In this document: positions 23,007 through 63,756 of the stretch, in pieces | Position numbering within the stretch: the first letter of the stretch is position 1 | Layout of the letters: every line of letters begins with the position of its first letter | Sequence record: MH791411.1 | Reading direction: 5' to 3' (one strand) | Length of the DNA stretch: 64,000 bases | Source of the DNA: Escherichia phage Ecwhy_1 | Position numbers and translations under genes: made by a program | Notes under the pieces: model-generated | Database searches by the model: none | Told to the model about the DNA's origin: nothing | What the model saw: only the letters and a program-made list of their open reading frames with translations

Positions 23007-23014
23007 ATATTACC

Positions 23015-23197: not shown

Positions 23198-23207
23198 AGT
23201 ATTCTCT

Positions 23208-23602: not shown

Positions 23603-23613
23603 ATAGTACTCTT

Positions 23614-23799: not shown

Positions 23800-23800
23800 A

Positions 23801-37714: not shown

Positions 37715-37746
37715 TATAATGCCAGTACTATGTACTGGCTTTTCTT
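37715..37746. terminator. terminator hairpin between convergent genes
   Basis: GCCAGTACTATGTACTGGC + T-run. Confidence 0.6.
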
Positions 37747-38397: not shown

Positions 38398-38474
38398 GAG
38401 TACCTCAATTAAATCGCTGTAAAATTGTACATTATAAAATGATTAAATAAAGTATAACACAAGGAGATTTTATC

Positions 38475-40007: not shown

Positions 40008-40008
40008 T

Positions 40009-40371: not shown

Positions 40372-40372
40372 G

Positions 40373-41393: not shown

Positions 41394-41737
41394 TCCTCCG
41401 GTATCTTGTTTCGAAGTTCAATCATAACACAACAAATTTTAATGGTCAAGTAAAAAACTACACATATCATACCCAATGTACCGTAAACTGCGGAGAATGC
41501 TGGCAGTACCTTTCCTGTGAGTGTTGCTACAATACATGCTATCAATGTTGATGCAAACAACGATTGATTAATGAAAGAATTCATAAAATCTTCACCATTA
41601 CGCTTATAGAATTGTCGTTTAAAATACCATCCTAGAAACATAACTACCCAAAATGTTACATAACCTGTTAGAATAATCCCTGCAATTGAATGTGCAACAG
41701 AACTACTCTTTAAAAACTCAAGATAAGATTCAAACAT
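41390..41737 (-). CDS. small membrane protein family member (115 aa)
   Basis: C-term LRNKIPEE. Confidence 0.65.
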   Translation of the reverse strand: MFESYLEFLKSSSVAHSIAGIILTGYVTFWVVMFLGWYFKRQFYKRNGEDFMNSFINQSLFASTLIACIVATLTGKVLPAFSAVYGTLGMICVVFYLTIKICCVMIELRNKIPEE

Positions 41738-42075
41738 TAGAAGTCCCCACGAATTTTTGCTCTACCATTAATGATGAGATTAAACAAGTATATCAGCACC
41801 CAAATTAGTAATCCAAGGAATACAATATATTGTGATATTGAGTTCAACTGTGGATTAGCACAATAAATTAAGTGTGCGATAAGACCAACAATTGCAAACA
41901 TACCTTGGATAATAGTGAAAAGAAGTAGTGAAATGTTTCCATCAGGATACAGTTTGAAAACGATTTTCTTTTTAAAATACCATAGTACTACAACTAGTGC
42001 ATGATAAAAGAAAAAACCAAACAGATAAATCAAAGTAATACTAAGCATTGTATCTGAATTAAAAAACTCAAGCAT
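41737..42075 (-). CDS. small membrane protein family member (112 aa), first of operon
   Basis: AGGAG SD; TTGACA..TATAAC promoter upstream. Confidence 0.65.
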   Translation of the reverse strand: MLEFFNSDTMLSITLIYLFGFFFYHALVVVLWYFKKKIVFKLYPDGNISLLLFTIIQGMFAIVGLIAHLIYCANPQLNSISQYIVFLGLLIWVLIYLFNLIINGRAKIRGDF

Positions 42076-49087: not shown

Positions 49088-49456
49088 CTATCGATTTGGC
49101 ATTTTATCTCGTAATTTCACAAGATAATCAATCACGGTACATCCTGAAATAAAGGTAATATAAGTACTGAAAAATCCTACCAGAATAAAGGCAACAAGCG
49201 TACTCCCATTTGGTTCTTCAGCTTTAATACCAATGATACCATCAGATGCAGTGAAAAATGTAGACATAAACGTTAGACAGATGTACATCACTAATAAGAA
49301 TTCATGTTCTAATGACGGATAAAAACGGTCAAAGAGTTTATAAAATTTAAAGTACAGTAGGAGTATACCAACAAAGGCATAGAAAGTAAACAGTGTTGTT
49401 ATGATATATGATATTAAATTTAAATTATACATCTCAACGCTCCGGTAGATTATCAC
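49088..49456 (-). CDS. small membrane protein family member (122 aa)
   Basis: same family as 39636-42075; C-term LRDKMPNR. Confidence 0.65.
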   Translation of the reverse strand: MIIYRSVEMYNLNLISYIITTLFTFYAFVGILLLYFKFYKLFDRFYPSLEHEFLLVMYICLTFMSTFFTASDGIIGIKAEEPNGSTLVAFILVGFFSTYITFISGCTVIDYLVKLRDKMPNR

Positions 49457-49781
49457 GTAATGTTTTGATTCGATTATACAATTTCATTGCTACATTTCCA
49501 AATAAACCAAAACCCATTACTAAAATGTATGCGATGAACATAGTAATAATCACAATAGTACCTAGACTGTAATGTACTGCACTAATACCCATTATTGTTT
49601 CTACAATGATGTGAGCAACAGAAATAATCAAAAGTACTACTACAATTGGATGATTTGGATACATTCGGTTAAACAATGTTTTGTACTTAAAGAAGTACAG
49701 TACTCCACCAAATAAGAAGTACACAATGTAGATTGATGCAATAGCATAAGCAAAAGCATTAGTGTAGAAAATCATTATCAA
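49434..49781 (-). CDS. small membrane protein family member (115 aa)
   Basis: C-term LRDNLPER. Confidence 0.65.
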   Translation of the reverse strand: MIMIFYTNAFAYAIASIYIVYFLFGGVLYFFKYKTLFNRMYPNHPIVVVLLIISVAHIIVETIMGISAVHYSLGTIVIITMFIAYILVMGFGLFGNVAMKLYNRIKTLRDNLPER

Positions 49782-49784
49782 TCC

Positions 49785-50123
49785 TTACTTTTCAGGGATT
49801 TTATCACGCCACTCATCAATACGATGAAGCAGTTTAAAGAGCAAAAATATCGGAACAGTAGCTATCATAATGGCAATTGTTAGTAATGTCAACCCCGATA
49901 CGAGATTTAATTCGTCAGTACTATATCCACATACCAGTGCTTCAATTATCCCCCACGTACATGCACAGAACATCATAAATGAAATGGGTGCATCGTAGTA
50001 TATGCGTTGATACAAGGTTGTGTATCGGAAGAATGCAATAATGTAACAAAACATGTAATACACCCAAATTAACGATACTACATAAAATGATACCTTATTA
50101 ATTAATTCAAAATGTTGTTCCAT
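49785..50123 (-). CDS. small membrane protein family member (112 aa)
   Basis: C-term WRDKIPEK. Confidence 0.65.
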   Translation of the reverse strand: MEQHFELINKVSFYVVSLIWVYYMFCYIIAFFRYTTLYQRIYYDAPISFMMFCACTWGIIEALVCGYSTDELNLVSGLTLLTIAIMIATVPIFLLFKLLHRIDEWRDKIPEK

Positions 50124-50133: not shown

Positions 50134-50436
50134 CTACATATATTCTAAGAATAATGTATTAGCTTCGTCTATGTTCTTAAGATAATACATGTAATACAGA
50201 TTTGGTTGTCCGTCTTTTGAACTCAAATCAAAGTACTTTAAACTATGCACCTTCATGACAAAAACAAATAATGACTTAAAACCAATCTCACCGTACTTAA
50301 TAAACAGTTCATCTAAATGAATGTAACTCTTAGTTTCAGATAATTCCTTCACATCAGCTTCAATTTCTTGTAAGCGAAGTTTACCGATTAAGTTTTCAAA
50401 TGAACGCATGATGTTGTTCCTTATGCTGGTACACAA
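50134..50436 (-). CDS. hypothetical protein (100 aa)
   Basis: ORF track. Confidence 0.55.
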   Translation of the reverse strand: MCTSIRNNIMRSFENLIGKLRLQEIEADVKELSETKSYIHLDELFIKYGEIGFKSLFVFVMKVHSLKYFDLSSKDGQPNLYYMYYLKNIDEANTLFLEYM

Positions 50437-50834
50437 TTTTTTATAATGAATACACGTTTCATGAATGAACTTTCATATACGTACTTCAGTTTACCATTTT
50501 CACGCATACGATGAAACACATCTTTACCACTAGTACTCCATGTTGAACCAGTCTCTGCATCAACATTGTTCATTACACCAGATGTTACGTTCACCCCGTA
50601 CTTGAAGCTAAAGGTACTGCCTTCTTCTACTAGAGGGATTGGTGTACTACGTTCATGTTCCAGTACAAGTTTACTGCCGATGATGTTGTACGAAGTTAGC
50701 TTGCATTTTAAAACACCCATCTCTTGTGCAGTTGGGTAATTCTTCTCAAATAAATCAGATACTTCATTTGCATAACAAACTGAACTAATCATAAGAAGTA
50801 ATGAACTGATAGAACGGAAAATAACTTTTAACAT
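50421..50834 (-). CDS. secreted hypothetical protein (137 aa)
   Basis: signal-peptide-like N-terminus. Confidence 0.6.
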   Translation of the reverse strand: MLKVIFRSISSLLLMISSVCYANEVSDLFEKNYPTAQEMGVLKCKLTSYNIIGSKLVLEHERSTPIPLVEEGSTFSFKYGVNVTSGVMNNVDAETGSTWSTSGKDVFHRMRENGKLKYVYESSFMKRVFIIKNCVPA

Positions 50835-50900
50835 GTTTGCCTCCAGTAGTTGATGAAATGATTATAGCAAAAAGGGCCGACCGAAGTCAACCCTTTTCTT
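50835..50900 (-). promoter_or_regulatory. class-B cassette
   Basis: GGGTTGACTTCGGTCGGCCC hairpin + T-run + TATAAT. Confidence 0.6.
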
Positions 50901-51251
50901 TTATATTTTACATGTCATGTCTGGTTTTGGCTTTTCATTCTTTGGCTTTTCAAATGGATTTGGCTTAGGGGACTTTTTATCTTTGTCATCTTTAGCTTTC
51001 TTTTTGTTTTCTTTTTTATCCGATTTGTCAGCTTTGTCTTTCTTATCTTTTGAATCTTTGTCAGCTTTAGATTGTGGTTCCTCACATACAGCAGTTTTTG
51101 GCTCCGGCATATCACATGAGTTATCCACAGGTTTAATGAACTCTTTACAGTTGTAGAAGTATAAACTTTCATTGGTAGTAAGATTGTGGAATCTAAAAGT
51201 ATTTTCACCATTAGTATATACTTTCTTAGTACTCTCAATATCATTACACAT
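50901..51251 (-). CDS. Lys/Asp-rich Cys-containing protein; possibly C-terminal part of a frameshifted secreted protein
   Basis: track ORF starts at GTG; first ATG at 51251; no own signal peptide; upstream ORF with signal peptide ends 13 nt away in another frame. Confidence 0.4.
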   Translation of the reverse strand: MCNDIESTKKVYTNGENTFRFHNLTTNESLYFYNCKEFIKPVDNSCDMPEPKTAVCEEPQSKADKDSKDKKDKADKSDKKENKKKAKDDKDKKSPKPNPFEKPKNEKPKPDMTCKI

Positions 51252-51261
51252 TGCAACCGTG

Positions 51262-51513
51262 TCACCGGAATTCACGCTCGATACCTAGTATATCCGACTT
51301 ACGTTCAGATAGTATTCCAGACGTATATCGATCTTTGTTATCAAATGCATTGAACCCTATAGTTTTATAATTGTCATGTACCAATCCTCTAGTGTAAGAC
51401 TTGGTATAGAACTCACCGTTTCTAAACTCCTGTCTAGCAATGGAGCACTGGTATTCAGTACTATAAACTATATCAGTAAACAATACAAGTGAAAATAAAA
51501 CATATTTAAACAT
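51262..51513 (-). CDS. secreted hypothetical protein (83 aa)
   Basis: signal peptide MFKYVLFSLVLFTDIVYS. Confidence 0.55.
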   Translation of the reverse strand: MFKYVLFSLVLFTDIVYSTEYQCSIARQEFRNGEFYTKSYTRGLVHDNYKTIGFNAFDNKDRYTSGILSERKSDILGIEREFR

Positions 51514-51584
51514 TGCATTACCTCTTATAAAACCCTCTACAATATTTACAAAAAAAGGTTGACCGAAGTCAACCTTTTAAATGT
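51514..51584 (-). promoter_or_regulatory. class-B cassette
   Basis: perfect GGTTGAC-TTCG-GTCAACC hairpin + T7. Confidence 0.6.
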
Positions 51585-53096
51585 TTATTTTTTATCCTTT
51601 CCAACACCACGGTCGTACTCTTTGAATGAGTTATCAAGTGTAGTTAGTGCATACTCATATGCTTCTGGTGATTCAATGTCAACATCATCTGCACCATTTA
51701 CTAAATCAGCCCAAGCCTTTTGAAGTTTACGAGCATTGTTACCAACATTATCTTTAATCCAACTAATGTTTTTGTTGATACTTTTACTATCAGCACCTGC
51801 TTTTTTACCAATCTCGGATATCCACATCATTAGCTTTTGAAGTTCATGAATTGATTTATCGGTCATTTCAAGATGTTCTTCTTCCATACCTTCGGAATCA
51901 GATGAACCAACGTCAATTCCATGTTTAGCTAATAGTTTACCAAGTTCAAAGAATGCAGCTTCAGCAGGGAAGTCATAACCTTTGTCTTTATAGTTATTCC
52001 ATGCACTATCAAACTCGTCAACAAAACGGTTAGCATAATCTGGATTTTTAACTAATGCTTTATATACTGCCATTGCATGTTCAAAACCTTCTTTATCTGA
52101 CCCAAACTCTTCCATCTCAGGACGATGAATGTATCCATCCATATCAACGGTATCAGGTAGATCTTCTTGCTCAGGCTCAACATCTTTCTGTTCAACTGCA
52201 CCTTCTTCATCTTTACGTAGTAGATATCCATCAGGTGTCACTTTCTCACCATGTTCTGCTTCATACTTTTTCATAGTGTTGAATGCAGCATCCATAGCTG
52301 TTACGAAGCGACTTTTCTCACCTTGTACATAAGATTTAAGTGCACTGTTAACTGCATCTGATACGAGCTTAACCTTATCATCTTTACCTTCTAAACGGTT
52401 TTCAAGTTTAGCCAGTACATTCTTGACTTGCTGGGCATTAGCACGTTCTGCTTTACCAATACTATCAAAAATTTTAAGAATACCATCAAGACTTGCTTCA
52501 CCCTGTTCAGGTTCTTTGGAATCTTCTTTGTGTGTACCTTCAAGTGCACGCATGATAGTACTGAATACTTCAGTAGGTTCAGTGCTCTTATTACCTTTCA
52601 TTGCATCAAGTACAGCTTGTGCTTTACCTTTGAGTTCTTCTTTAGGAACTGCCTGTAGTGCTTTGACAATACCCTGAATCAACTGTGGTTTGTTAGCAAA
52701 GATCTTACCTAAGTTATCAGATAACTCTTTAACAGGGTTAGCAGCTTTAGGAGCTTCTGGTTTTGGTTCTTCTTTAGGAACTGCTTGTTCTTTCTCAGCA
52801 CGTTCCATATCAGCAAGGCGTTGTTTCTGTGTTGCGTTAAGAAGACCTAATGAGTTAACATAACGTAGCTTTTCTAGCTCAGTCATGTTCTCAGTACTCT
52901 TAACTTCACCTGCTTCTGCGTTTGCCTTACCAGCTAAACCTGTCCCTTGATTACGTGAACCACGTGACCCCTGTCCTGCTTGGTAGCTATTTTGACGACG
53001 ATTGCGTTCACTCCATTTATCAGAGTGACCTGCCATGTTCCCGCCATTTTTATCAGTAAATTGACCTGGCATTTGATTTCTCTCCATAGATTTCAT
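51585..53096 (-). CDS. hypothetical 503-aa protein, candidate late/virion protein
   Basis: TATAAATA ~27 nt upstream; shares N-terminal domain with 53944-54327. Confidence 0.7.
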   Translation of the reverse strand: MKSMERNQMPGQFTDKNGGNMAGHSDKWSERNRRQNSYQAGQGSRGSRNQGTGLAGKANAEAGEVKSTENMTELEKLRYVNSLGLLNATQKQRLADMERAEKEQAVPKEEPKPEAPKAANPVKELSDNLGKIFANKPQLIQGIVKALQAVPKEELKGKAQAVLDAMKGNKSTEPTEVFSTIMRALEGTHKEDSKEPEQGEASLDGILKIFDSIGKAERANAQQVKNVLAKLENRLEGKDDKVKLVSDAVNSALKSYVQGEKSRFVTAMDAAFNTMKKYEAEHGEKVTPDGYLLRKDEEGAVEQKDVEPEQEDLPDTVDMDGYIHRPEMEEFGSDKEGFEHAMAVYKALVKNPDYANRFVDEFDSAWNNYKDKGYDFPAEAAFFELGKLLAKHGIDVGSSDSEGMEEEHLEMTDKSIHELQKLMMWISEIGKKAGADSKSINKNISWIKDNVGNNARKLQKAWADLVNGADDVDIESPEAYEYALTTLDNSFKEYDRGVGKDKK

Positions 53097-53177
53097 ATTG
53101 TTTATTCTCTATGACTATATTTATAGTATAAAGAAAAGGTTGACCGAAGTCAACCCTATTTTCACTGTACTATACCA
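53097..53177 (-). promoter_or_regulatory. class-B hairpin + late-type promoter
   Basis: GGGTTGACTTCGGTCAACC hairpin then TATAAATA on minus strand. Confidence 0.6.
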
Positions 53178-53474
53178 TTAGTAGTTACAGTCAGCTTTCG
53201 CTGTGAATGTTTTACTTTCACCTCGTTGTGTGGTGATTCGTCCGAGTAAAGTAGTTTTGTCAATAGTCATTGTAGTTAGTACTGGAACATTACCTTCAAA
53301 GTCAATAGCTTTGAAATTGTAGGTGGTTTCATTCTCCACTACACTTGGACCAAAGAGTTCATATGTGTTGATTTCAAGTGTGTCACCATCTGAACGCAAC
53401 AGTGTGCAGTCCAGATTAGGAGTAGCCAGTACTGGGAAAGCCAAAAACATCATCATTACAATAATTAATTTCAT
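53178..53474 (-). CDS. secreted hypothetical protein (98 aa)
   Basis: signal peptide MKLIIVMMMFLAFPVLATP. Confidence 0.6.
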   Translation of the reverse strand: MKLIIVMMMFLAFPVLATPNLDCTLLRSDGDTLEINTYELFGPSVVENETTYNFKAIDFEGNVPVLTTMTIDKTTLLGRITTQRGESKTFTAKADCNY

Positions 53475-53734
53475 TTCACTTCTCCTGTTTTTTTCTTAGG
53501 ATCAACCAATGACCAAATGAAGAATCCGAGAATTACAAGTACCCACAGAATCATGATAAAGAAAGCGAACAGTACAATAGTGTTTGTCAAAAAGAAATAC
53601 AATAGAATGTTCGACCCAATACTACATACAATCAATGCAGCTTCATGTTTAACAACACGAATGGCTGTAATGAGTGCAGGAAGAAATCCGACAAATAACA
53701 GTACTAACGCATATAGTGATAATGTTTCAGCCAT
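53471..53734 (-). CDS. small membrane protein (87 aa)
   Basis: two hydrophobic segments. Confidence 0.6.
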   Translation of the reverse strand: MAETLSLYALVLLFVGFLPALITAIRVVKHEAALIVCSIGSNILLYFFLTNTIVLFAFFIMILWVLVILGFFIWSLVDPKKKTGEVK

Positions 53735-53860
53735 GATATCCCTTATTTGGTTTGTTCAAAACTAGGTGTATTGATATAGGTGTCAATTGAATAACATACT
53801 GTACCCACTACAACAGCAGCGATTAGGGCAGCGATGATGAATTTAGTACCTTGCATAATT

Positions 53861-53943
53861 TAATACCTCACGTTGTTTGTATTTTGTATCACTTGATGAA
53901 AATATTATACGACAAAGGGCTGACTGAAGTCAACCCCTTTTAA
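53861..53943 (-). promoter_or_regulatory. class-B cassette
   Basis: GGGGTTGACTTCAGTCAGCCC hairpin + TATAAT. Confidence 0.6.
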
Positions 53944-54327
53944 TTATTTTTTAAACTTATGTTTTTCGCCTTCAATAGAGTTCACGATGTCATCATGAAT
54001 CTTGCGAAGGTTATGAGTTTTCTTTAGTGCTTCATGTAGTGCACGGAATGCTGCGTGTACTGTTGCCTTGAAGTGCTCTTTAGGAGTCACTTTAAGTTTC
54101 TCAATGATATCACGTACATAAATTGGATGATCTTCAAATACACGATTCAATTCATGGCCTAGTGATTCTAAACTGAAAGCTTTTTCGCGTGAAGGACGAT
54201 CATGTGCAAGACTTTGGTCAGGCTTTAGTAGACCTAGTGAATCAAGATACTTATGCTTATGTGCATTATCAATTCCAGAAATATCCACATCATGCGATGG
54301 ATCTTTCTTATTCCATTTATCAACCAT
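53944..54327 (-). CDS. hypothetical 127-aa protein, paralog of N-terminal part of 503-aa protein
   Basis: KYLDSLGLLKPDQS vs RYVNSLGLLNATQK; TATAAATA + AAGGAG upstream. Confidence 0.65.
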   Translation of the reverse strand: MVDKWNKKDPSHDVDISGIDNAHKHKYLDSLGLLKPDQSLAHDRPSREKAFSLESLGHELNRVFEDHPIYVRDIIEKLKVTPKEHFKATVHAAFRALHEALKKTHNLRKIHDDIVNSIEGEKHKFKK

Positions 54328-54375
54328 TTCATACTCCTTAAAGAGATAAATTACTTTAATATTTATACTTCATGT
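54328..54375 (-). promoter_or_regulatory. late-type promoter candidate
   Basis: TATAAATA ~30 nt upstream of ATG on minus strand. Confidence 0.5.
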
Positions 54376-54438
54376 GCTGTTTATTTCAACAGACACTTAA
54401 GATTATATCACATATGAAATGGTTGTTCCAAAGTCAAA

Positions 54439-54882
54439 TCAGTACTGTTTAAGTTCTGAACTGAAGATAAAGGAATCCATATCTTCTAGTGTTAACTTCA
54501 AGTTCGGTGTGTACTTTAATATCACACATTCAGGTTTCTTAATGGCAGCTTGATAGGCAGCAATTGCCAACTGTTGAAGCTGCTCTGGTGTGTAGTTCAT
54601 GCGTTCTGCATTGAATACGATGTTCTTAATATCACCACCTGGCAGCTTCTCAAACTCACGCATAACAGCAGCCATCACATCATCAGATGTATTCTTATAA
54701 GCCCAATGAGGTAGTTGCATAACGTCATAAATCTCGCCATTGTCGTTCATAAGAGAGATCCATTTTTTACCGTCCGATGAACTAAACAGACGACCTTTAA
54801 TAGCAATGTTCTCTACCAAATTAACAAAGGCAAATATGTCTTGCTCATTTAGTTCAATGCTATTAACGTTAATCCAACCCAT
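54439..54882 (-). CDS. hypothetical protein (147 aa)
   Basis: trimmed to MGWINVN after GGAG SD. Confidence 0.55.
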   Translation of the reverse strand: MGWINVNSIELNEQDIFAFVNLVENIAIKGRLFSSSDGKKWISLMNDNGEIYDVMQLPHWAYKNTSDDVMAAVMREFEKLPGGDIKNIVFNAERMNYTPEQLQQLAIAAYQAAIKKPECVILKYTPNLKLTLEDMDSFIFSSELKQY

Positions 54883-54895
54883 ACTACATCTCCAG

Positions 54896-55468
54896 TTATA
54901 AATCACGAACGACATTCATTAAACACAATTTGGGCTTTATCGCATTCAAAACCCATATGCATTCTTTGTAAGTTGCTATTATAGCATCTAAATGCTCAGT
55001 TACAATGCTTTCTTGAAAATATTCTTCTTCATTGAGCTTTGCTAAATTAGTCACATCACATGTAGGTACTATAGGTCTGGATTGTACACCCATTCCATTA
55101 TTGATATTGGTAAAATGTAAAAAATTGTACTTCACCACACCGTTATCTACACTTATGATACATGTCAAATGTTCCAACTCAGTTAGTTCGGTATTACAAG
55201 TGACATGAATGAATCCAGCATTATAGGCTCTATAATCATCTACTAATATCTCAAAATCATTACGTTTAAATATAAGTGAAATGAGTTTGTCTTGTGGTTT
55301 AACCTTCTGAAATTTTACCGAATTTACGTATGATACTTTAATCTTAGATGAAATTATCTTTTTACTAAGTGCAGTTAATTCTTCTTTAGCCTTAAAAGTT
55401 AAAGTTATAGGTCTAAATCTAGAACTTTTGTTCTTCTTTGATACTTTGAACTTACCTTTTCTATTCAT
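54896..55468 (-). CDS. hypothetical protein (190 aa)
   Basis: ORF track. Confidence 0.6.
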   Translation of the reverse strand: MNRKGKFKVSKKNKSSRFRPITLTFKAKEELTALSKKIISSKIKVSYVNSVKFQKVKPQDKLISLIFKRNDFEILVDDYRAYNAGFIHVTCNTELTELEHLTCIISVDNGVVKYNFLHFTNINNGMGVQSRPIVPTCDVTNLAKLNEEEYFQESIVTEHLDAIIATYKECIWVLNAIKPKLCLMNVVRDL

Positions 55469-55522
55469 TAATTAAACCCCACATAAAGTAAAAGGGTTGG
55501 AATAATACCAACCCTATATCTT

Positions 55523-55759
55523 TTATTTTTTAATAGATTCATAAAGCAGAAACAACCAAATAAACATTGATGAACAAACTACTACTGGGATTAATGTAAA
55601 TTCAGTAAAGAATAAAAGTATTCCATAAGTTAGTATGCAACATAAGTTTACGTACATAATTGCTTCTGCATTTTTATTTTTCATTTTATATGCAATGAAT
55701 GTTGGTGACCACATTACCAAAAATGCAAACAACGCACATATGATGATTATAGTTTCCAT
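55523..55759 (-). CDS. small membrane protein (78 aa)
   Basis: hydrophobic segments. Confidence 0.55.
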   Translation of the reverse strand: METIIIICALFAFLVMWSPTFIAYKMKNKNAEAIMYVNLCCILTYGILLFFTEFTLIPVVVCSSMFIWLFLLYESIKK

Positions 55760-55829
55760 ATTACACCTCCGTAAAATAATGTTCTGTACTGCTATTATTT
55801 ACAGAGAATATCTGAAAAATTGATCTAGA

Positions 55830-56054
55830 TCAATTTTTAGTCACTTTACAATTTGAATCTTTTTTGTACTGAACAATCACATTGTTCTTAAGGAAGATGA
55901 TGGTCCCATAGGAACCTTGGGCTGCAACTTCAACAATATGGTTCTTATATGTTTCAGTATATCCTTCCATCTCGTTGATACACACTACATGATACTTTGG
56001 TTTAGCACATACAACAGTACTCAAGAATAGCAGTACTAGTACTAGATATTTCAT
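55830..56054 (-). CDS. secreted hypothetical protein (74 aa)
   Basis: signal peptide MKYLVLVLLFLSTVVCA. Confidence 0.6.
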   Translation of the reverse strand: MKYLVLVLLFLSTVVCAKPKYHVVCINEMEGYTETYKNHIVEVAAQGSYGTIIFLKNNVIVQYKKDSNCKVTKN

Positions 56055-56104
56055 TTTATTACCTTATAAACAAGAACAGGAATCCTTTTACGGATTCCTA
56101 TAAT

Positions 56105-56398
56105 TTAGTCCTTTAATGTACCATTGTGTAAACGATTATACACATCATTGCGACGCAACTCAACAATATCTTCAGCGTACTTCATTGTAAACGCCCATGC
56201 TTTTGGATGCACATTAAGCTTCATACGAATGCGATTCTTCATCAATTCACCGCTTAGGCGAACAAACTCATGAACACCACGACTTCCGTACTCTGAAATC
56301 AAATCATTGATGTACATGTTGCGAAGGGTTTCGTCTGTACATTCTTTAACCATTTCTACGTCTGCCACGATGCTTGCATTTACTGAAGTACTGATCAT
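56105..56398 (-). CDS. hypothetical protein (97 aa)
   Basis: ORF track. Confidence 0.55.
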   Translation of the reverse strand: MISTSVNASIVADVEMVKECTDETLRNMYINDLISEYGSRGVHEFVRLSGELMKNRIRMKLNVHPKAWAFTMKYAEDIVELRRNDVYNRLHNGTLKD

Positions 56399-56409
56399 TT
56401 TAAGTTACC

Positions 56410-56676
56410 TTATTTGAATTGGACTGTAATTTTATCACCTTCAACTACGAACTTACAGTCGTAGCGACGGGCCATATCCATATACATATGCTCAGAATAC
56501 CACGGAACATCAATAACTGGATGCTCTGCGTATTGTAGCACTTCACGGTCACCAACAGTAGTGATGACGAAAGGAATGTTCATCTCTCGCAAAAACAACT
56601 CGGCACCTGGTGAACGATTGACAAACTCAGTGTCGTTACGCAAAGTAAAACCATTGTATTGTAATTTAAGCTTCAT
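56410..56676 (-). CDS. hypothetical protein (88 aa)
   Basis: ORF track. Confidence 0.55.
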   Translation of the reverse strand: MKLKLQYNGFTLRNDTEFVNRSPGAELFLREMNIPFVITTVGDREVLQYAEHPVIDVPWYSEHMYMDMARRYDCKFVVEGDKITVQFK

Positions 56677-56690
56677 GATTATCCTCTAAG

Positions 56691-57047
56691 TTAATACCAT
56701 TCTTTTAAACCATCAAGTTCGGCTATGTGAGTAATTATAACACAGATAACACTCAGGTCAAGCATTATTTGCTCATAATTTAATTTTATTCTATCATCAC
56801 TGTATGCTCTAAAAACAACATCAAAGTCAAAGTAGTTATCGTTTTCATCATTCATTGGAATGATTCTATATCTACGTCTACCATCATCATTGAATACAGT
56901 CAAACATTGTTTGAATTTCTTCATTAACTGTGTAGTCAATGCATTGTAATATGCAACATCATATTGTGTACAACGTGGGTCATTGGGTAGATAAAACGAT
57001 ACAAATTTTTTTAATTCTATTTGAGTCTTATCCATATACAGCCTCAT
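56691..57047 (-). CDS. hypothetical protein (118 aa)
   Basis: ORF track. Confidence 0.55.
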   Translation of the reverse strand: MRLYMDKTQIELKKFVSFYLPNDPRCTQYDVAYYNALTTQLMKKFKQCLTVFNDDGRRRYRIIPMNDENDNYFDFDVVFRAYSDDRIKLNYEQIMLDLSVICVIITHIAELDGLKEWY

Positions 57048-57468
57048 GTATTACTCTTTTACTTTGGCGGTACTCATCCTTTGCTTCTCTCACTGACATG
57101 ATACGAACCAGATTGGCACTACCACAATAGTACTGAACCTGACTACGACCAATGTCAACATGATTATCAGGAACTTCATATACTGATACAGCAAACCCTG
57201 CACGATGTAATTTACCCAAGTCCATAGTAAAGAACTTAAACAAATCATTCAAACTCTGACAGCCAAATGCCCAGCCACGTTTGATTGAATAGATTCCATC
57301 TTCAGTTGGTTCTGGTTGGAATTGCGAAGGCGTGGTCATGCACAAACGGTCAAATCCATTTTTAGTACTGTATCGTGAAGAGTACCGTGCGAACGGCCCT
57401 ACTGTTTTTGCTGGATCTAAGTTAGGTTCAATATAACTGAATTTAAGTTCAAAACGATATACGTACAT
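57028..57468 (-). CDS. hypothetical protein (146 aa)
   Basis: ORF track. Confidence 0.6.
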   Translation of the reverse strand: MYVYRFELKFSYIEPNLDPAKTVGPFARYSSRYSTKNGFDRLCMTTPSQFQPEPTEDGIYSIKRGWAFGCQSLNDLFKFFTMDLGKLHRAGFAVSVYEVPDNHVDIGRSQVQYYCGSANLVRIMSVREAKDEYRQSKRVIHEAVYG

Positions 57469-57523
57469 AATTAAAATCCCCAGTAGTTGATGAAATAATT
57501 ATAACAAAAAAGGTTGACCGAAG
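57469..57523 (-). promoter_or_regulatory. class-B cassette
   Basis: GGTTGACTTCGGTCAACC hairpin + T7 + TATAAT. Confidence 0.6.
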
Positions 57524-57745
57524 TCAACCTTTATTTTGAAGTTCTTGAACTAATTGTCGTACTTCTTTGATGTTATGACACTGCTTTACAGTGAAGTAAT
57601 CATACTTACGACCATAGGTTCTTGGATCATCACCTTCCATATACTGCTGCACATCAAAGATTTGTAAGTAGGGATGCTGCATAACACGAATGTTACCACA
57701 TTGATAAATCAACATATGTTTAGTCCTCATATTTACACAAGCCAC
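57524..57745 (-). CDS. hypothetical protein (73 aa)
   Basis: ORF track. Confidence 0.5.
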   Translation of the reverse strand: MACVNMRTKHMLIYQCGNIRVMQHPYLQIFDVQQYMEGDDPRTYGRKYDYFTVKQCHNIKEVRQLVQELQNKG

Positions 57746-58070
57746 CGAATGTTGCCTGTTTTGCTGCCTTACGCATCATCACAAGTTTAACATACTGTTC
57801 GCCATTACTTTCTTCATATACATCAACTTGAAGAAATGCAAGCATATTGGGATCAGTATCGTTCGAGTACTGCGTAAAACTAATGTCACCTACAGTATGT
57901 TCTTTAACAAAATTATACACTTCACCATCGATATAAACGATAGTATGGTCATCGCTATCACCTTGGTAAATGTGTTTAATATCACCTTCAGTACAGACTA
58001 GTCCAGGTAATGGTTCTGCATAAGACATACCACATATAATCATACAAACAAAAAACAAAATTACTTTCAT
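57720..58070 (-). CDS. secreted hypothetical protein (116 aa)
   Basis: signal peptide MKVILFFVCMIICGMSYA. Confidence 0.6.
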   Translation of the reverse strand: MKVILFFVCMIICGMSYAEPLPGLVCTEGDIKHIYQGDSDDHTIVYIDGEVYNFVKEHTVGDISFTQYSNDTDPNMLAFLQVDVYEESNGEQYVKLVMMRKAAKQATFGGLCKYED

Positions 58071-58450
58071 GATTTGTTTCCTTTGGATAAAATGGATTTC
58101 TTCACTTTGTACTGCTTGTAGTTATTATACCAAACATCGATTACATAAATCAAGTACCAAAGTGATGGATATAATGATAGACCAATAAAAACTGAAAAAA
58201 TACTTGTATTAATAAAACCAATACAGTGCAGTGTAAATGCAACGATTAGAATACCAATCGTAATCATACTAGCTGAATATGGTACGCTATCAGATGCGAA
58301 CCATGAATCAACCTTACTAATTAAAGTATACTTCCCAGTACTAACAGCATAAACAATTGCTACTATACCAAATAATGCCATTGAAATAGTTATTACTGAG
58401 TTAATAAGAATCGGAGTAATTAATACATAAAGCATTACATCGTTTATCAT
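58067..58450 (-). CDS. membrane protein (127 aa)
   Basis: multiple hydrophobic segments. Confidence 0.6.
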   Translation of the reverse strand: MINDVMLYVLITPILINSVITISMALFGIVAIVYAVSTGKYTLISKVDSWFASDSVPYSASMITIGILIVAFTLHCIGFINTSIFSVFIGLSLYPSLWYLIYVIDVWYNNYKQYKVKKSILSKGNKS

Positions 58451-58460
58451 TTGTTATACC

Positions 58461-58826
58461 TTAAAGTTCACAATGAATATTCAATTTATCAATATCCTGA
58501 TCGCGTTTGTTCGACGAATCTTGATAAATGACTATGTAAATATCCCCATCCTTTGTCTTGGGGTCCACTATCAATATTACATTTGCTATTATACCAGCAT
58601 CTGATTTATATGTCGATACCTTTTTATTCCCAATCAAACTCTCGGCCCTGAAACGGTAAACCTCATTATCTACGACAATATTGTTTCCATTTTGTGGGTC
58701 ATTAGAAAGTACATGCCATGTTCCATCGTTTCCCATACAATCAAGGTAAGCAGGTACGGCTGTACTGAACCTTGAATAAAGCATGAATACTACAAACACC
58801 ATTATCATTCTTATATATTTTTTCAT
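58461..58826 (-). CDS. secreted hypothetical protein (121 aa)
   Basis: trimmed to MKKYIRMIMVFVVFML after AGAGG SD. Confidence 0.55.
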   Translation of the reverse strand: MKKYIRMIMVFVVFMLYSRFSTAVPAYLDCMGNDGTWHVLSNDPQNGNNIVVDNEVYRFRAESLIGNKKVSTYKSDAGIIANVILIVDPKTKDGDIYIVIYQDSSNKRDQDIDKLNIHCEL

Positions 58827-58904
58827 TATAACCTCTAACGAGCAATACTTCTGCACATATTATTTGTACAGAAGTATTTAATACTATTAGAGACTTTTTG
58901 AACG

Positions 58905-59231
58905 TTACTTCTTACTAGTTAGTTTATCTTTCAAGATATCAAACCAAATGGAAACTTTACCAGCAAACAATGCATTAGTAAACCACACAATACCAACAAT
59001 GTTCTCAACTAAATTCATAATTGAAACAAATGGTCCAATTGGTAATACAAAACTTACTAACCATGACAGTACTGAAATAAGTACTACAACGAAGAAGATT
59101 CGTACAATGGGTGAGTCTAACATAAACAACTCACGAAACTCATCACGCTCGGTTTCGTCTTTAATGAAGAATTCGAAAACCATAACCCATAACAGAATTA
59201 GAGCAGGAATTGAAATTAGAACTGATAACAT
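58905..59231 (-). CDS. membrane protein (108 aa)
   Basis: hydrophobic segments. Confidence 0.6.
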   Translation of the reverse strand: MLSVLISIPALILLWVMVFEFFIKDETERDEFRELFMLDSPIVRIFFVVVLISVLSWLVSFVLPIGPFVSIMNLVENIVGIVWFTNALFAGKVSIWFDILKDKLTSKK

Positions 59232-59289
59232 GTTTTATATCCTCAAGTTTAAGTGTTAAGTTTCAGACTACAAGAACCATTATACAGTA

Positions 59290-59532
59290 CTACAAACGTT
59301 TGTCAACAGGTTTTTCTTCAATAAGCATAAGATAACTGAAGACGAATAGTAATACAGATGCCATATCAATAACCGTAAAGCTCACGGGAATGATAATAGA
59401 CACTAGAATGAGTGCCACGTTTAGCAAGAATACAGTAGTGATATCCACCAGCTTTCGTTTAGTGGCTACTGCTACTAGTGTAGGGTAGAACATAAACAAT
59501 AATGCAACTACAAAACTCAATACTAGATACAT
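59290..59532 (-). CDS. small membrane protein (80 aa)
   Basis: hydrophobic segments. Confidence 0.55.
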   Translation of the reverse strand: MYLVLSFVVALLFMFYPTLVAVATKRKLVDITTVFLLNVALILVSIIIPVSFTVIDMASVLLFVFSYLMLIEEKPVDKRL

Positions 59533-60185
59533 TTCTTTTTCACCTTAAGAAAATTATAACATAAAACAACCTCAACATCTGGCTCATCATACAAGTACTC
59601 AAAGCGTTCTTTACTACGCTTAGTACCGATGTACTCACCATTCTTATGCCAACGCCACCCACCACTCTCTGGTTGGTCAGACTTCAGTACTGGATGATAG
59701 CACATGACAATTTCTTCTGGACCTTCAATAAGGTTCTTGTACTTCGTCAAAATCTGTTCAAGCGTATCTGCTACACCATAAGACGAGTGCATAAGATAAG
59801 ACTCAGGACGTGGACGACCACTTGGTAGAATGTCATCAGTACTATTAAAGATAGCACGGAAGTCTTCTGACGTGTATAAACTTCCATCTTCATGGATCAT
59901 TGGATACTCATCTACTACATCATAATCAGTGAAGTGTTCAATCGCATGTCCTGGTCTGTAACCTGCGAGGATACCTGTATGTTTCGTCTGTACAATAGTC
60001 ATAACAGATGTACTATTGTTTACATTAGGATCATGAATTTCAGCCCAAAAAGGATGATGAGGATCAAATTTAGCATTAACTAAAGTACAATCACCAATGT
60101 AGTCGAAATTAGTTTCTTTAAAGTTCAAAGAAACACCACGCAATGCCCAATCAGGAGAAGTGATGAAATTAAGATTAACTAACAT
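59523..60185 (-). CDS. hypothetical protein (220 aa)
   Basis: ORF track; ATG verified. Confidence 0.65.
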   Translation of the reverse strand: MLVNLNFITSPDWALRGVSLNFKETNFDYIGDCTLVNAKFDPHHPFWAEIHDPNVNNSTSVMTIVQTKHTGILAGYRPGHAIEHFTDYDVVDEYPMIHEDGSLYTSEDFRAIFNSTDDILPSGRPRPESYLMHSSYGVADTLEQILTKYKNLIEGPEEIVMCYHPVLKSDQPESGGWRWHKNGEYIGTKRSKERFEYLYDEPDVEVVLCYNFLKVKKKCI

Positions 60186-60219
60186 AGTATCCTCAGTTGC
60201 GGTTGTTTTGATACAGTTA

Positions 60220-60540
60220 TTATATCAAAGACGTGTCAATTTGTACAACATTTATTGTAACTATTTCGTACATAAAATCAATTGCATTGAACTCTGCATA
60301 CCACTCTACAATCTCACAAGCAGCATCAACTTGGTTTTTCGCATTAACACGTCTGGCATAGGTGCTGCTCATTTTGAATCTACCATATTCATAGACATTG
60401 TAGACACCATGACACCACCACATCTTAGTCATTAATGCTAGGCCATACAGTGAATTGTAAGTCTTGGTATTCAAATTTACCAATATCATTCTTCTTACGG
60501 AATGATTCTTCAACCTGAATTTCTGCGTCGTACTGACCAT
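60220..60540 (-). CDS. hypothetical protein; start uncertain
   Basis: overlaps 60425-60643 in another frame; internal ATGs at 60432/60423 possible. Confidence 0.35.
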   Translation of the reverse strand: MVSTTQKFRLKNHSVRRMILVNLNTKTYNSLYGLALMTKMWWCHGVYNVYEYGRFKMSSTYARRVNAKNQVDAACEIVEWYAEFNAIDFMYEIVTINVVQIDTSLI

Positions 60541-60643
60541 CGGCCTTTACTACGTACTTAAAATATTCTACATGTGAAAAACGATACCCTTCTCCGTCTT
60601 GCTTGGATACTTGTACTGACCCTTCAACTAGATATAAATTCAT
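60425..60643 (-). CDS. hypothetical protein (72 aa)
   Basis: ORF track. Confidence 0.5.
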   Translation of the reverse strand: MNLYLVEGSVQVSKQDGEGYRFSHVEYFKYVVKADGQYDAEIQVEESFRKKNDIGKFEYQDLQFTVWPSIND

Positions 60644-60646
60644 TTG

Positions 60647-60868
60647 TCATTCTCCATCATATTCAGTGAGTATTACACTATGTACTGTTTCAATATAGCG
60701 TTGTGTTTTTGGTGTGTTGTACTTAGTTACTTCATCAAACAATTTAAATAGTGCATGTGTTGGACTTAATGCACGAACAAATACATCAATCTTCTGTACT
60801 TCTTTCTTATAACCACGTACATTATTAAACTCAGATACATGCTCATACACAATGTAGTAACGATTCAT
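60647..60868 (-). CDS. hypothetical protein (73 aa)
   Basis: ORF track. Confidence 0.55.
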   Translation of the reverse strand: MNRYYIVYEHVSEFNNVRGYKKEVQKIDVFVRALSPTHALFKLFDEVTKYNTPKTQRYIETVHSVILTEYDGE

Positions 60869-61380
60869 ATATTAAGTAGTTCCATAAATTCATCGATCAA
60901 GGAAGTTCTAATGCACATAACAAATTCAAAATCAACATCGATAGTATCGAGTAGTTTGAACAACTTTGGTACATTTGGATCATTCAACTGGAAGTTATGA
61001 ATCAAGCTCTGTTGAAACACACTTTCTTCAGTACTGTAATCAATAACAAAATATTCAGCTACACCTGGAGGTGAATAAACATCATATAATATCTGACGTT
61101 TATTGTGTGTTTCTGAACCAGGACAATATATAAGTTCTATTTCATACGAACCTGCCGAGGATCTATCATAAAACACAATCTCAGTACTAGTTATTTCACT
61201 ACCATCACTTCTTTCATAAAAACATACATCGGCATATCGTTTACCATTGGGCTTCAAGATCTCATGAGTTGTTTTACCATAACATTTATCAGTTTCAATG
61301 TGTACTTTGCCTTGATATTCAGAACGTCTTACATCATTTCCACGATTAAACAATATGTTCAACAACTCATTAATATCCAT
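60865..61380 (-). CDS. hypothetical protein (171 aa)
   Basis: ORF track. Confidence 0.6.
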   Translation of the reverse strand: MDINELLNILFNRGNDVRRSEYQGKVHIETDKCYGKTTHEILKPNGKRYADVCFYERSDGSEITSTEIVFYDRSSAGSYEIELIYCPGSETHNKRQILYDVYSPPGVAEYFVIDYSTEESVFQQSLIHNFQLNDPNVPKLFKLLDTIDVDFEFVMCIRTSLIDEFMELLNI

Positions 61381-61619
61381 TATTTCGCCTCGATAACCTT
61401 AAGGTTAACAAAATCACCTTTTACTTTCATACATTTGAATTCAGTGCGTGTTTCATCACCACTATCACGAGGCCAATGAGTTGCAGAGTAGCACTGGTCT
61501 GGTGTTTTATATACACCTTCACCAATAGTACGAATGATTTCACCATTCGTGAGAACTACTGCAAGATATAAAGTAAACATGATATTCGCCTCAGAATAAT
61601 TTATTAATAATAATAGCAC
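61380..61619 (-). CDS. hypothetical protein (79 aa)
   Basis: ORF track. Confidence 0.55.
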   Translation of the reverse strand: MLLLLINYSEANIMFTLYLAVVLTNGEIIRTIGEGVYKTPDQCYSATHWPRDSGDETRTEFKCMKVKGDFVNLKVIEAK

Positions 61620-61733
61620 CTAACGCAAGAACTGCAATAATTACAGATACCCACATTACTGCATTCACTGTACCAGTTAGTTCTTTATCAAACTCCCTGC
61701 ACTTCTTACGGTACTCTTCCCACTCTTTGTTAT

Positions 61734-61949
61734 TCACACTGCCGCTCCTAATAGGTCGGTAGCTTTCTTCAGTACTACGTCAATTGTTTCCAGTACTGCA
61801 CCTTTGTGTTCAATTGATACAATATTATTATAAGTATCAAGGTCCAAGTACTCCATATATTCAGTTTTGAATACACGAACATCAGTACTGGTGATTTTAA
61901 GATCGCAACCTTTATCCCAAATAACCTGCATCATTTCATTGGTAGTCAT
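61734..61949 (-). CDS. hypothetical protein (71 aa)
   Basis: ORF track. Confidence 0.55.
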   Translation of the reverse strand: MTTNEMMQVIWDKGCDLKITSTDVRVFKTEYMEYLDLDTYNNIVSIEHKGAVLETIDVVLKKATDLLGAAV

Positions 61950-62224
61950 TATTCAACCTTATCATAAACAAGTTTGTGTGTGCTTAGTACTTTGTTGAGA
62001 TGACCAGGGCATTCATATACATACAATCGCTCCTGACGTTTTTCCCAACCACCACAGATACGGCCTGATTGTGTACATACCTCATACTCGTTAATAAAAG
62101 ACTTACCTGTGAATGTACAATCCTGACGAACTAAGTCTTTTGCACTAAACCTGCCGTCATCATTACATGCTGTAAGAAACATTGTACAGAATACAAAGAC
62201 AACTGTCAATAGTTTTTTAATCAT
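61949..62224 (-). CDS. putative lipoprotein (91 aa)
   Basis: signal peptide with LTAC lipobox-like motif. Confidence 0.6.
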   Translation of the reverse strand: MIKKLLTVVFVFCTMFLTACNDDGRFSAKDLVRQDCTFTGKSFINEYEVCTQSGRICGGWEKRQERLYVYECPGHLNKVLSTHKLVYDKVE

Positions 62225-62589
62225 TTAACATCACCCCAACGGAAACCTTTCATATAATTCAAATTCACCTCAACGAGTTCATGTGTTTTTGTACACCAAA
62301 TGGAGAGAGTTTTTGTAACATCACCAGGTTCAGATTCATAATTCACACAATAACCTTCAATGCGTAGAGTTTTGTTAGTCCATGACTCCCACTCAATCCA
62401 AATTTCATTTGGATAATAAACCATATCTTCGTTGAACGTATGGAATTGGTCCATTGGTAAGTGACCTTCAACTTCAATTACTTCAGCACTTCGTGCCAGT
62501 TTTTCAAGCTTGTACTTTATTTCAGCAAGAAATTCTTCATTATTCATACGAGTTAATAAATCTGTTGCACGGGTTGTATCAAGGCTCAT
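62221..62589 (-). CDS. hypothetical protein (122 aa)
   Basis: ORF track. Confidence 0.6.
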   Translation of the reverse strand: MSLDTTRATDLLTRMNNEEFLAEIKYKLEKLARSAEVIEVEGHLPMDQFHTFNEDMVYYPNEIWIEWESWTNKTLRIEGYCVNYESEPGDVTKTLSIWCTKTHELVEVNLNYMKGFRWGDVK

Positions 62590-62837
62590 TGTTGTACTCC
62601 ATTAATCACTGAAGTATTGATTCGTGTTTTACCGCTGCTGTATCCAGTACTGGTATTTGCATTAGGGCAATAAACTGTATACAAGGTTACACCAGCACCG
62701 TCCTTTTGCATACGATAAATCTTACATCCTGCTTCTTGTAATTCAATAGGGAGAATAAAATCACTTGTGCGTTCTTTTGTTGAAGCGTCACATGCAGTGA
62801 GTAAAAATGCAACGAGTACTGCTACGATATATTTCAT
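62586..62837 (-). CDS. putative lipoprotein (83 aa)
   Basis: MKYIVAVLVAFLLTAC lipobox-like. Confidence 0.6.
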   Translation of the reverse strand: MKYIVAVLVAFLLTACDASTKERTSDFILPIELQEAGCKIYRMQKDGAGVTLYTVYCPNANTSTGYSSGKTRINTSVINGVQQ

Positions 62838-63145: not shown

Positions 63146-63363
63146 AGTTAATTCCTCATTTAATTTAAAAGGGTGGAAACGCAGTGACGAGTACGATTAT
63201 GCTGTCTTTCCTTTCACTGCATTCCCTTTTATATAAAACATAATACAGTACTGATATCTTATGTCAAGTATTAATCACCAAAAATCATCAGATACCCAAA
63301 CCAACCCACACAGACGACTAAGCTAACAATACCAAAGACAATCTCTAAAGTCATGTTGCATCC

Positions 63364-63573: not shown

Positions 63574-63756
63574 TTATTCGTTGATTACGTCAAGTACTTT
63601 GTCCAGTTTCTTACCAATACTATCCTTTGGTTTCTCACCATTCTGGAATACATTAGTACTGCAATACTCAGGACGGGTATTAGGGAACTTCTCGTTCATC
63701 CAGGAGTGACCATATACACCAAGAATGATACCTACGATAAGAATGATGATTTGCAT
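63574..63756 (-). CDS. small membrane protein (60 aa)
   Basis: N-terminal hydrophobic segment. Confidence 0.5.
   Translation of the reverse strand: MQIIILIVGIILGVYGHSWMNEKFPNTRPEYCSTNVFQNGEKPKDSIGKKLDKVLDVINE

Follow-up and report, generated by a model that had tools for sequence, protein, structure and literature searches.

Superinfection exclusion and envelope protection by virulent phages have been described in molecular detail for only a few proteins, namely, T4 Imm and Spackle, T5 Llp, and Cor. In T4, the tail lysozyme is inhibited by Spackle, an early protein that is exported by a signal peptide, carries a disulfide bond, and folds as an alpha-helical bundle (PMC7677548). T5 Llp is an early exclusion lipoprotein, and the genes encoding Llp and Cor lie directly downstream of a receptor-binding protein (RBP) gene (PMC9586334). 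Here, we describe a block of small genes at positions 50421 to 62837 of a 64,000-nucleotide stretch of Escherichia phage Ecwhy_1 (sequence record MH791411.1; this whole stretch is referred to below as the window), which holds about fifteen compact candidates together, including a phage-restricted barrel family with a fold like that of bacterial lysozyme inhibitors. Our results firmly support an accessory island of envelope-directed proteins that is conserved in position and variable in content, with operons that pair membrane and secreted proteins and carry early-type promoters. A literature search returned no paper describing the island, and the genome papers of fEgEco12 and Sharanji mention neither signal peptides, lipoproteins, nor superinfection.

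The window originates from an Asteriusvirus-type E. coli jumbo phage. Across the block it is 99% identical to vB_Ec-M-J, BF17, and fEgEco12 and 84 to 86% identical to PBECO4, 121Q, and G17. Window position x corresponds to position 373,210 - x of the vB_Ec-M-J record, in which the block occupies 310 to 323 kb. Since the vB_Ec-M-J genome has direct terminal repeats of 21.5 kb, window positions 1 to ~16,160 fall in the right repeat, and the block lies 34 to 47 kb to the inside of that repeat. The repeat part of the window carries small genes throughout, with spacers of ~80 to 100 nt. All block genes are on the minus strand, our own gene calls in the block are concordant with the deposited ones, and the eight coordinates flagged by the earlier note are the low-coordinate ends of genuine minus-strand open reading frames (ORFs) matching deposited genes. 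We name genes by these coordinates.

The earlier note had claimed that at least eight ORFs of the block begin with signal peptides or LTAC lipoboxes and that small membrane proteins are interspersed among them. Export was called with our own rule-based classifier and not with a trained predictor such as SignalP or LipoP. A signal peptidase I (SPI) call required a positive n-region, an h-region of 10 or more residues with none of them charged, agreement with the -3/-1 rule, and a mature part without a transmembrane (TM) segment, while a lipoprotein call required L[ASTVI][GAS]C where the h-region ends. Strict SPI calls were obtained for five ORFs, 50421 (CYA/NEV, with the slash marking the cleavage site), 53178 (VLA/TPN), 55830 (VCA/KPK), 57720 (SYA/EPL), and 58461 (STA/VPA), and strict lipoprotein calls for two, 61949 (LTAC, Asn at +2) and 62586 (LTAC, Asp at +2). 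The eighth, 51262, has a weaker signal peptide in the window, with an h-region of 8 residues interrupted by an Asp; its PBECO4/G17 ortholog has a canonical one (MKKYIIFGIVLFSSTAYG/ADYHC). Signal peptides are retained in orthologs at 40 to 78% protein identity, with altered residues and the same n/h/c layout, as in the G17 ortholog of 50421 (MKKIFLSIILVLFSFNVYA/AD). As a self-check, the classifier was applied to T4 Spackle, which it correctly flagged as exported but mislabeled as a signal peptidase II substrate. Because of this mislabeling, our lipoprotein calls also lean on the invariance of the lipobox Cys in 50 diverse homologs and on the Cys falling right where the h-region ends. TM calls confirmed seven small membrane proteins in the block, so that both claims of the earlier note hold, the first with seven strict calls and one signal peptide that is weak here and canonical in orthologs.

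The high local density of such genes was likewise borne out. As background we used a nonredundant genome composed of the window and the rest of vB_Ec-M-J, with 617 called genes. Inside the block, 7 of 31 genes received a strict signal-peptide or lipoprotein call, compared with 10 of the 586 other genes (odds ratio 17, Fisher p = 5.5e-6). Several of these 10 calls concern lysis proteins (the o-spanin and the endolysin anchor) or were false positives (terminase). When exported and TM calls were combined, the counts were 14/31 versus 74/586 (p = 1.9e-5). Scanned in sliding windows, the genome has one maximum for exported proteins, and it is this block. The excess of small TM proteins spans a wider region of ~40 kb (300 to 340 kb of the record), well past the limits of the block. 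Two sets of tandem paralogous multi-TM proteins of 104 to 123 amino acids (aa), seven at 39636 to 42075 and three at 49088 to 50123 (minus strand), show a distant mutual relationship (BLASTP E = 0.004) and prolong this membrane-protein-rich zone. Just outside the block on the other side, the minus-strand gene at 63574 to 63756 encodes 60 aa with an uncharged hydrophobic N-terminal segment (MQIIILIVGIILGVYG). The product, probably a membrane protein of the signal-anchor type, extends the envelope theme upstream of the block.

The envelope genes are organized into short units. A sigma70-type promoter (TTGACA-16-TATTAT; 63240 to 63267, minus strand, as are all features of the block given below) precedes a 13-gene unit running from 62837 to 59290. 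This unit encodes both lipoproteins, 62586 (62586 to 62837; 83 aa) and 61949 (61949 to 62224; 91 aa, with four Cys in the mature part), as well as the tail-anchored 61591 (61591 to 61737; 48 aa, one C-terminal TM segment, Kyte-Doolittle window 26 to 44, mean 2.84) and the membrane protein 59290 (59290 to 59532; 80 aa, 2 to 3 TM segments), a paralog of 55523 (BLASTP E = 0.007). Directly after 61591 lies a gene for a 66-aa protein (61380 to 61580) whose N terminus is hydrophobic (MFTLYLAVVLTNG) and which resembles DUF1482 weakly and below the cutoff (E = 0.003). A second sigma70-type promoter (TTGACA-16-TATAAT, 12/12 matches; 59306 to 59279) precedes a unit in which TM and secreted proteins alternate, in the order 58905 (58905 to 59231; 108 aa, 2 to 3 TM segments, 60% identity to G17), 58461 (58461 to 58826; secreted, 121 aa, Cys in LDC... 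and ...HCEL), 58067 (58067 to 58450; polytopic, 127 aa, 4 to 5 TM segments, 43% identity to G17), 57720 (57720 to 58070; secreted, 116 aa), and 57524. The stop of 58067 and the start of 57720 overlap by 4 nt.

Similar pairings recur in the remainder of the block. A two-gene unit consists of the secreted 55830 (55830 to 56054; 74 aa, VVC...NCKVTKN), whose orthologs at 49 to 51% identity retain the signal peptide, followed by the membrane protein 55523 (55523 to 55759; 78 aa, 3 TM segments). A three-gene unit consists of the single-pass membrane peptide 53743 (53743 to 53856; 37 aa, TM window 6 to 24, mean 2.52), the membrane protein 53471 (53471 to 53734; 87 aa, 3 TM segments), and the secreted 53178 (53178 to 53474; 98 aa, LDC...DCNY), the last two overlapping by 4 nt. 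Further on, the secreted 51262 (51262 to 51513; 83 aa, one Cys just past the cleavage site, matching phrog_28901 of unknown function) is paired with 50901, and the secreted 50421 (50421 to 50834; 137 aa, LKC...NCVPA) is first in the next unit. The protein encoded by 50901 (50901 to 51251; 116 aa), co-transcribed with 51262, is extremely rich in Lys and Asp in its low-complexity C-terminal half (KADKDSKDKKDKADKSDKKENKKKAKDDKDKK...) and has no family match.

A scan for promoters and terminators also revealed a recurrent hairpin, GGTTGAC-TTCG-GTCAACC, at 57512 to 57529, 53918 to 53935, 53138 to 53155, 51557 to 51574, and 50875 to 50892. Ten copies were observed in the window against 0.02 expected, all on the minus (coding) strand, with starts at 8872, 42956, 44594, 45818, 46401, 50875, 51557, 53138, 53918, and 57512. 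The 5' arm provides a -35-like TTGACT with TATAAT ~18 nt downstream, so that the element looks like an intrinsic terminator fused to a promoter; in the G17 record, these sites are annotated as terminators only. A T4-type late motif, TATAAATA, occurs just twice on the minus strand of the 64 kb, at 53118 to 53125 (53 nt upstream of the virion gene 51585) and at 54360 to 54367 (40 nt upstream of its virion-protein paralog 53944). Both occurrences are intergenic and ahead of annotated virion structural genes, and they appear to mark 51585 and 53944 as embedded late genes outside the envelope set. Given sigma70-type promoters at the envelope units versus TATAAATA at virion genes only, we infer that the envelope units are probably early and read by host RNA polymerase. 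A distant relative, PA5oct, is dependent on host RNA polymerase (PMC7318152).

The island keeps its position in PBECO4, G17, JNE01, and EJP2, while its content varies. Compared with G17, envelope genes are far more diverged than their cytoplasmic neighbors (Mann-Whitney p = 0.0016, or 0.011 without absent genes). The 53471/53178 pair and 55523 are absent from PBECO4 and G17, and 55523 is present in JNE01. While 53471 is confined to the window's subclade (8 tblastn records, all at ≥95% identity), 53178 has homologs in JNE01 and EJP2 at 43 to 47% identity. Both 53178 and 50421 occur as discrete diverged alleles, which for 50421 stand at 100, 74, 56, and 43% identity. The syntenic block of JNE01 and EJP2 is equally rich in signal-peptide, lipoprotein, and TM genes, many of them without a detectable match to the window versions, and all envelope genes except those of the 62586 family are restricted to the window's phage group. 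Nei-Gojobori estimates for envelope genes versus neighbors gave a nonsynonymous distance (dN) of 0.19 versus 0.05, a synonymous distance (dS) of 1.12 versus 0.60 (p = 0.044), and a ratio of the two (omega) of 0.19 versus 0.12 (p = 0.066). All omega values fell between 0.05 and 0.37, and since every one is below 0.4, these are functional genes under purifying selection. Gene-wide positive selection was therefore rejected, omega being only marginally above that of the neighbors. Between neighboring genes, dS is mosaic, ranging from 0.08 to >3. Old alleles being exchanged within a mosaic region account better for the divergence than gene-wide positive selection does. Variable content, discrete alleles, and mosaic dS are the outcome expected from contact with variable partners, such as competitor phages.

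We found a further common trait among the secreted proteins, a pair of cysteines at the two ends of the mature chain. This Cys-clamp (one Cys 3 to 25 residues past the predicted cleavage site and another 1 to 8 residues from the C terminus) is present in all six true small secreted proteins of the genome. It was found in 6 of 8 small SPI calls versus 12 of 304 nonexported proteins (p = 4e-7), the two exceptions being a false positive and the o-spanin. The gene at 12882 to 13181, in the terminal-repeat part, encodes the sole strong signal-peptide protein of the window outside the block and also has a Cys-clamp (IQC...INCR). Among these proteins, 57720 and 58461 are paralogs (BLASTP E = 3.5e-5, hhalign probability 73%). 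Their family is confined to Asteriusvirus-type contigs, with 23 clusters and 18 matches among 1.84 billion representatives; all members keep the signal peptide, C26 is invariant, and C112 is found in ≥90%. A single superfamily for all secreted proteins was considered and rejected at the sequence level, because hhalign, run on shallow alignments, supports only the relationship of 57720 to 58461; the Cys-clamp proteins have just this architecture in common. A broadened profile of the 57720 family, with the signal peptide removed, recruited two island genes found only in EJP2 (E = 2.5e-5 and 4.8e-4).

The hypothesis that Cys-clamp proteins are barrels of the MliC/PliC kind was set down before a model of 57720 existed. 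The AlphaFold2 (AF2) model of this protein has a disordered N terminus, a predicted local distance difference test (pLDDT) score of 80 to 93 across most of the mature domain, and a predicted template modeling (pTM) score of 0.68. It is all-beta, an eight-stranded antiparallel barrel, in which C26 falls in strand 1 (residues 24 to 28) and C112 in strand 8 (residues 106 to 114), making a disulfide clamp between these strands a candidate. In a Foldseek search with this model, the lipocalin-like Tp0751 was the top match (E = 0.012) and PliC was not near the top; a viral structure library contained further small phage proteins with this fold, at 14 to 19% identity. None of the 23 family members matched Pfam, including PF09864 (MliC/PliC), at E values up to 10, and a profile search of the PDB returned no PliC or MliC chain. 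With export signals conserved, genes swapped or absent in relatives, a barrel of periplasmic type, and no lysis genes among its members, the set is, as the earlier note proposed, a periplasm- or envelope-directed accessory one.

What such a set might do can be pictured as follows. The island would supply the host envelope with six Sec-exported periplasmic proteins, two lipoproteins, and seven small inner-membrane proteins, from short operons that co-transcribe a small membrane protein with a secreted one, often with translational coupling, and that host RNA polymerase would read early from sigma70-type promoters. The products may then remodel or guard the periplasm and membranes of the infected cell, providing superinfection exclusion and protection from lysis from without, such that the island, with unrelated protein families, would do the work that Imm plus Spackle do in T4 and Llp does in T5. 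In the periplasm, the 57720 and 58461 barrels would be candidates for binding or inhibiting peptidoglycan hydrolases, for example, the glycoside hydrolase family 24 (GH24) tail lysozymes of incoming phages, and the remaining Cys-clamp proteins could possibly play a similar role. The phage itself encodes three GH24 lysozyme domains, one of them in a gp5-like hub, so sister phages offer the kind of target that T4 Spackle neutralizes. That island products shield the envelope of the infected cell from secondary attack is a reading to which we give somewhat less than an even chance. A more specific version is rather unlikely. It holds that Asteriusvirus jumbo phages have evolved a secreted barrel family of their own, of MliC/PliC type with a strand 1-strand 8 disulfide, expanded into paralogs that each have a co-transcribed membrane protein and together form an exchangeable battery of inhibitors against competitors' tail lysozymes or other envelope-breaching enzymes. 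In that version, 53178, 55830, 50421, and 12882 would be members changed beyond recognition, and the whole would be a convergent, modular counterpart of Spackle plus Imm.

Several observations weigh against a protective, inhibitor-based function. In Pfam, PHROGs, PADLOC, and PDB sequences, no curated family with an established function was reached by any block protein, the PHROG matches are unnamed, and searches by NCBI-style names gave nothing. MliC/PliC proteins are defined by the motifs SxSGAxY (loop 4) and YxxxTKG (strand 6) together with a strand 1-strand 8 disulfide (PMC5507604); both motifs are absent from the 57720 family alignment, and in the model the turn between strands 4 and 5, which contains an invariant Gly61, is short, with no protruding loop. 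Although the Neisseria protein ACP has the fold and disulfide and inhibits lysozyme without these motifs (PMC5507604), PhiA of Brucella has the same fold and showed no lysozyme inhibition in vitro (PMC8334348). Weak matches of the 57720-family profile to 53178, 55830, and 12882 were lost after the signal peptides were stripped. As for T4 relatives, phmmer searches of the whole genome returned nothing for T4 Imm and no match better than E = 0.5 for T4 Spackle (Sp, gp61.3). The island membrane proteins fit T4 Imm in size and TM count, with early timing taken from sigma70-type promoters only, and were tried as members of its family; they align on the LPWFIAL motif, which 59290 weakly resembles, but the match is not significant (hhalign probability ≤25%). 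With the Pfam model PF14373 (Imm_superinfect), 55523 scored 15.7 bits against a cutoff of 27.9 bits, and 53471 and 59290 gave no match; the deposited "immunity to superinfection" label rests on this subthreshold score. Early timing is itself read from promoter motifs only, and gene-wide omega, only marginally above that of the neighbors, falls short of a classical arms-race signature. The island plausibly works like T4 Imm/Sp or T5 Llp yet fails family membership at the sequence level for these and for MliC/PliC.

The lipoprotein 62586 stands apart from other island proteins in its distribution. Its family was found in 579 phage records by tblastn and in 102 protein clusters across many genera, including FelixO1-like and rV5-like phages, Erwinia and Yersinia jumbo phages, 114-kb Vibrio phages, and phages of Acinetobacter, Salmonella, and E. 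coli. The family core consists of the lipobox Cys followed by LP.E(L/M)..C.IY.L...VV.CPN..T.T.Y..GK. C16 (the lipid-attachment Cys), C38, and K70 are invariant, and P30, Y41, C57, and P58 are nearly so. LPAM_1, the Pfam model for lipid-attachment sites, was the sole Pfam family to match and did so in 16 of 50 members; a precomputed Pfam tag on all 62586 relatives, PF16225, was not reproducible by hmmscan at E values up to 10. The best PHROG match is phrog_902 (E = 5e-13), which has no known function. The AF2 model of 62586 is poor (pLDDT 61, pTM 0.31) and was set aside. A small TM protein is encoded at most two genes from the 62586 relative in W70, in an Erwinia phage, and in a Vibrio phage. 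The family of 61949 is narrower, with 41 records, all from jumbo phages; the PBECO4 and G17 copies are 98 to 99% identical, and the lipobox is conserved as LTGC followed by Asp in JNE01 and LTAC followed by Glu in EJP2.

That the 62586 family occurs in phages of different hosts points to a conserved target in the host and, with the early-type promoters and envelope location of the island, is consistent with a role in takeover of the host envelope or in counter-defense. Island products might neutralize proteases, lytic transglycosylases, envelope-stress sensors, or membrane abortive-infection systems, or they might block colicins or type VI secretion system effectors during phage production. 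We consider this rather unlikely, since neither PADLOC nor other family searches matched a defense or counter-defense system, and the strain-level turnover of most of these genes suits variable targets more than conserved host machinery.

Alternatively, the island might mask the phage's own receptor(s) in the outer membrane: the two lipoproteins, possibly joined by the secreted proteins, would bind them from the periplasm, as Llp and Cor jam FhuA, and so block adsorption of progeny or sister phages to infected cells and debris. Both small lipoproteins follow an early-type promoter, the mechanism is known for Llp (PMC9586334), and deposited labels (OQ718158, PP777464) name 62586 "Cor superinfection exclusion protein" and 61949, 62586, and 51262 "lytic conversion lipoprotein." The latter label was given even to 51262, which has no lipobox, and no Cor or Llp label was found among the 579 tblastn records of the 62586 family, in which the gene is always labeled hypothetical. 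We rejected 62586 as Cor because its match to phrog_1119 (Cor; E = 9.4e-4) covers only residues 1 to 49, about half of which are signal peptide, and is worse than that to phrog_902. The position of the genes differs as well. Tail-fiber/RBP genes lie at 146 to 163 and 208 to 211 kb, ≥100 kb from the block, and the neighbors of the lipoprotein genes are small hypothetical genes, unlike those of Llp and Cor. This distance, together with the presence of the 62586 family in phages with unrelated receptors, argues against a receptor mask of the Llp/Cor type. The predicted localization points the same way. In E. coli, Asp at position +2 is the Lol-avoidance signal that leads to inner-membrane retention; this residue is mostly Asp in the 62586 family (N, E, S, T, and R are also seen), and 62586 itself is predicted to be retained in the inner membrane, unlike the outer-membrane Llp. 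Altogether, we regard receptor masking as an unlikely explanation of the island.

Control of lysis timing seems to us very doubtful. Small TM genes co-transcribed with genes for periplasmic proteins could form holin/antiholin-like or endolysin-regulating modules, comparable to the periplasmic antiholin RI of T4, that tune lysis or lysis inhibition. Anchored in the membrane by its N terminus, the endolysin would face the periplasm, where a PliC-like fold could restrain it. However, the lysis genes are far from the block at 310 to 323 kb, with spanins annotated in vB_Ec-M-J at 109,930 to 110,615 and the endolysin at 119 kb. The unit promoters are of early and not late type, and several paralogous modules with presence/absence variation in close relatives would be unusual for an essential timing device. 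Because the spanin pair of 121Q and PBECO4 also maps elsewhere (PMC6139136 supplement), we rejected the possibility that the island lipoproteins are o-spanins. Finally, even though the calls come from a rule-based classifier whose loose rules give false positives elsewhere in the window, hydrophobic N termini arising by chance in AT-rich small ORFs that are not exported or are not genes are effectively excluded by the enrichment (p = 5.5e-6), signal peptides conserved despite residue change, omega of 0.05 to 0.37 for all genes, the invariant lipobox Cys, a Cys-clamp specific to exported proteins, and a 57720 model in which a disordered N terminus precedes a well-folded barrel.

Two other groups of tandem paralogs were observed in the window. 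Thirteen plus-strand paralogs of ~370 to 397 aa (24344 to 39599) start with MLPF(V/A)R(M/L)(F/V)(D/K)YGN, and the copy at 30381 to 31560 is split; a relative in the EJP2 record is annotated as "RCC1 repeat domain protein." On the minus strand at 19630 to 24237 are about twenty paralogs of 59 to 75 aa with the N-terminal pattern M..EFY..KL..., interrupted by a 219-aa gene at 21578 to 22237.

Shielding of the infected cell's envelope, our preferred reading of the island, would have consequences for applied work. Asteriusviruses are under characterization for therapy, and early envelope-modifying genes could alter the behavior of these phages in cocktails with others; therefore, knowing what they exclude has practical value. 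The island also includes the 62586 family, which has no known function and is present in hundreds of virulent phages of different genera. The deposited labels Cor, lytic conversion lipoprotein, and immunity to superinfection are without family-level support and should not be propagated.

Compared with T4 Imm and Spackle, the island presents the same combination in a virulent myovirus of a small polytopic inner-membrane protein and a small secreted protein with a signal peptide and a Cys pair, with timing that would here also be early, and both phages carry a gp5-like GH24 tail lysozyme. The island proteins have no sequence similarity to either T4 protein, with the resemblance to Imm remaining below threshold, and the all-beta barrel of 57720 contrasts with the alpha-helical bundle of Spackle. 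Unlike the genes for Imm and Spackle, those for membrane and secreted proteins are adjacent and co-transcribed in the island, form several paralogous modules, and vary among close relatives. With T5 Llp and the Cor proteins of T1 and phi80, the island shares small phage lipoproteins with a lipobox, probably early and located in the envelope of the infected cell. It differs from them in a marginal PHROG match dominated by the signal peptide, the lack of RBP adjacency, a +2 Asp that predicts the inner membrane, and a family that spans unrelated receptors.

Among bacterial proteins, MliC/PliC, ACP, and PhiA are, like 57720, small, exported by a signal peptide, and built as eight-stranded antiparallel beta-barrels with Cys in the first and last strands. 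In contrast to MliC/PliC, 57720 is phage encoded and limited to one phage group, lacks sequence or profile similarity as well as the motifs, and is placed by Foldseek closer to a lipocalin-like protein. It would need a binding mode other than the motif-based one of MliC/PliC, as do ACP and PhiA, and the fold alone guarantees no inhibition. In its genomic behavior, the island resembles phage morons and hypervariable accessory regions, which are likewise clusters of small genes that hold their place while their content varies, with promoters and terminators of their own and with alleles swapped between lineages. Typical accessory regions are functionally mixed and mostly cytoplasmic, whereas a single theme prevails in this island, about half of whose genes are envelope directed.

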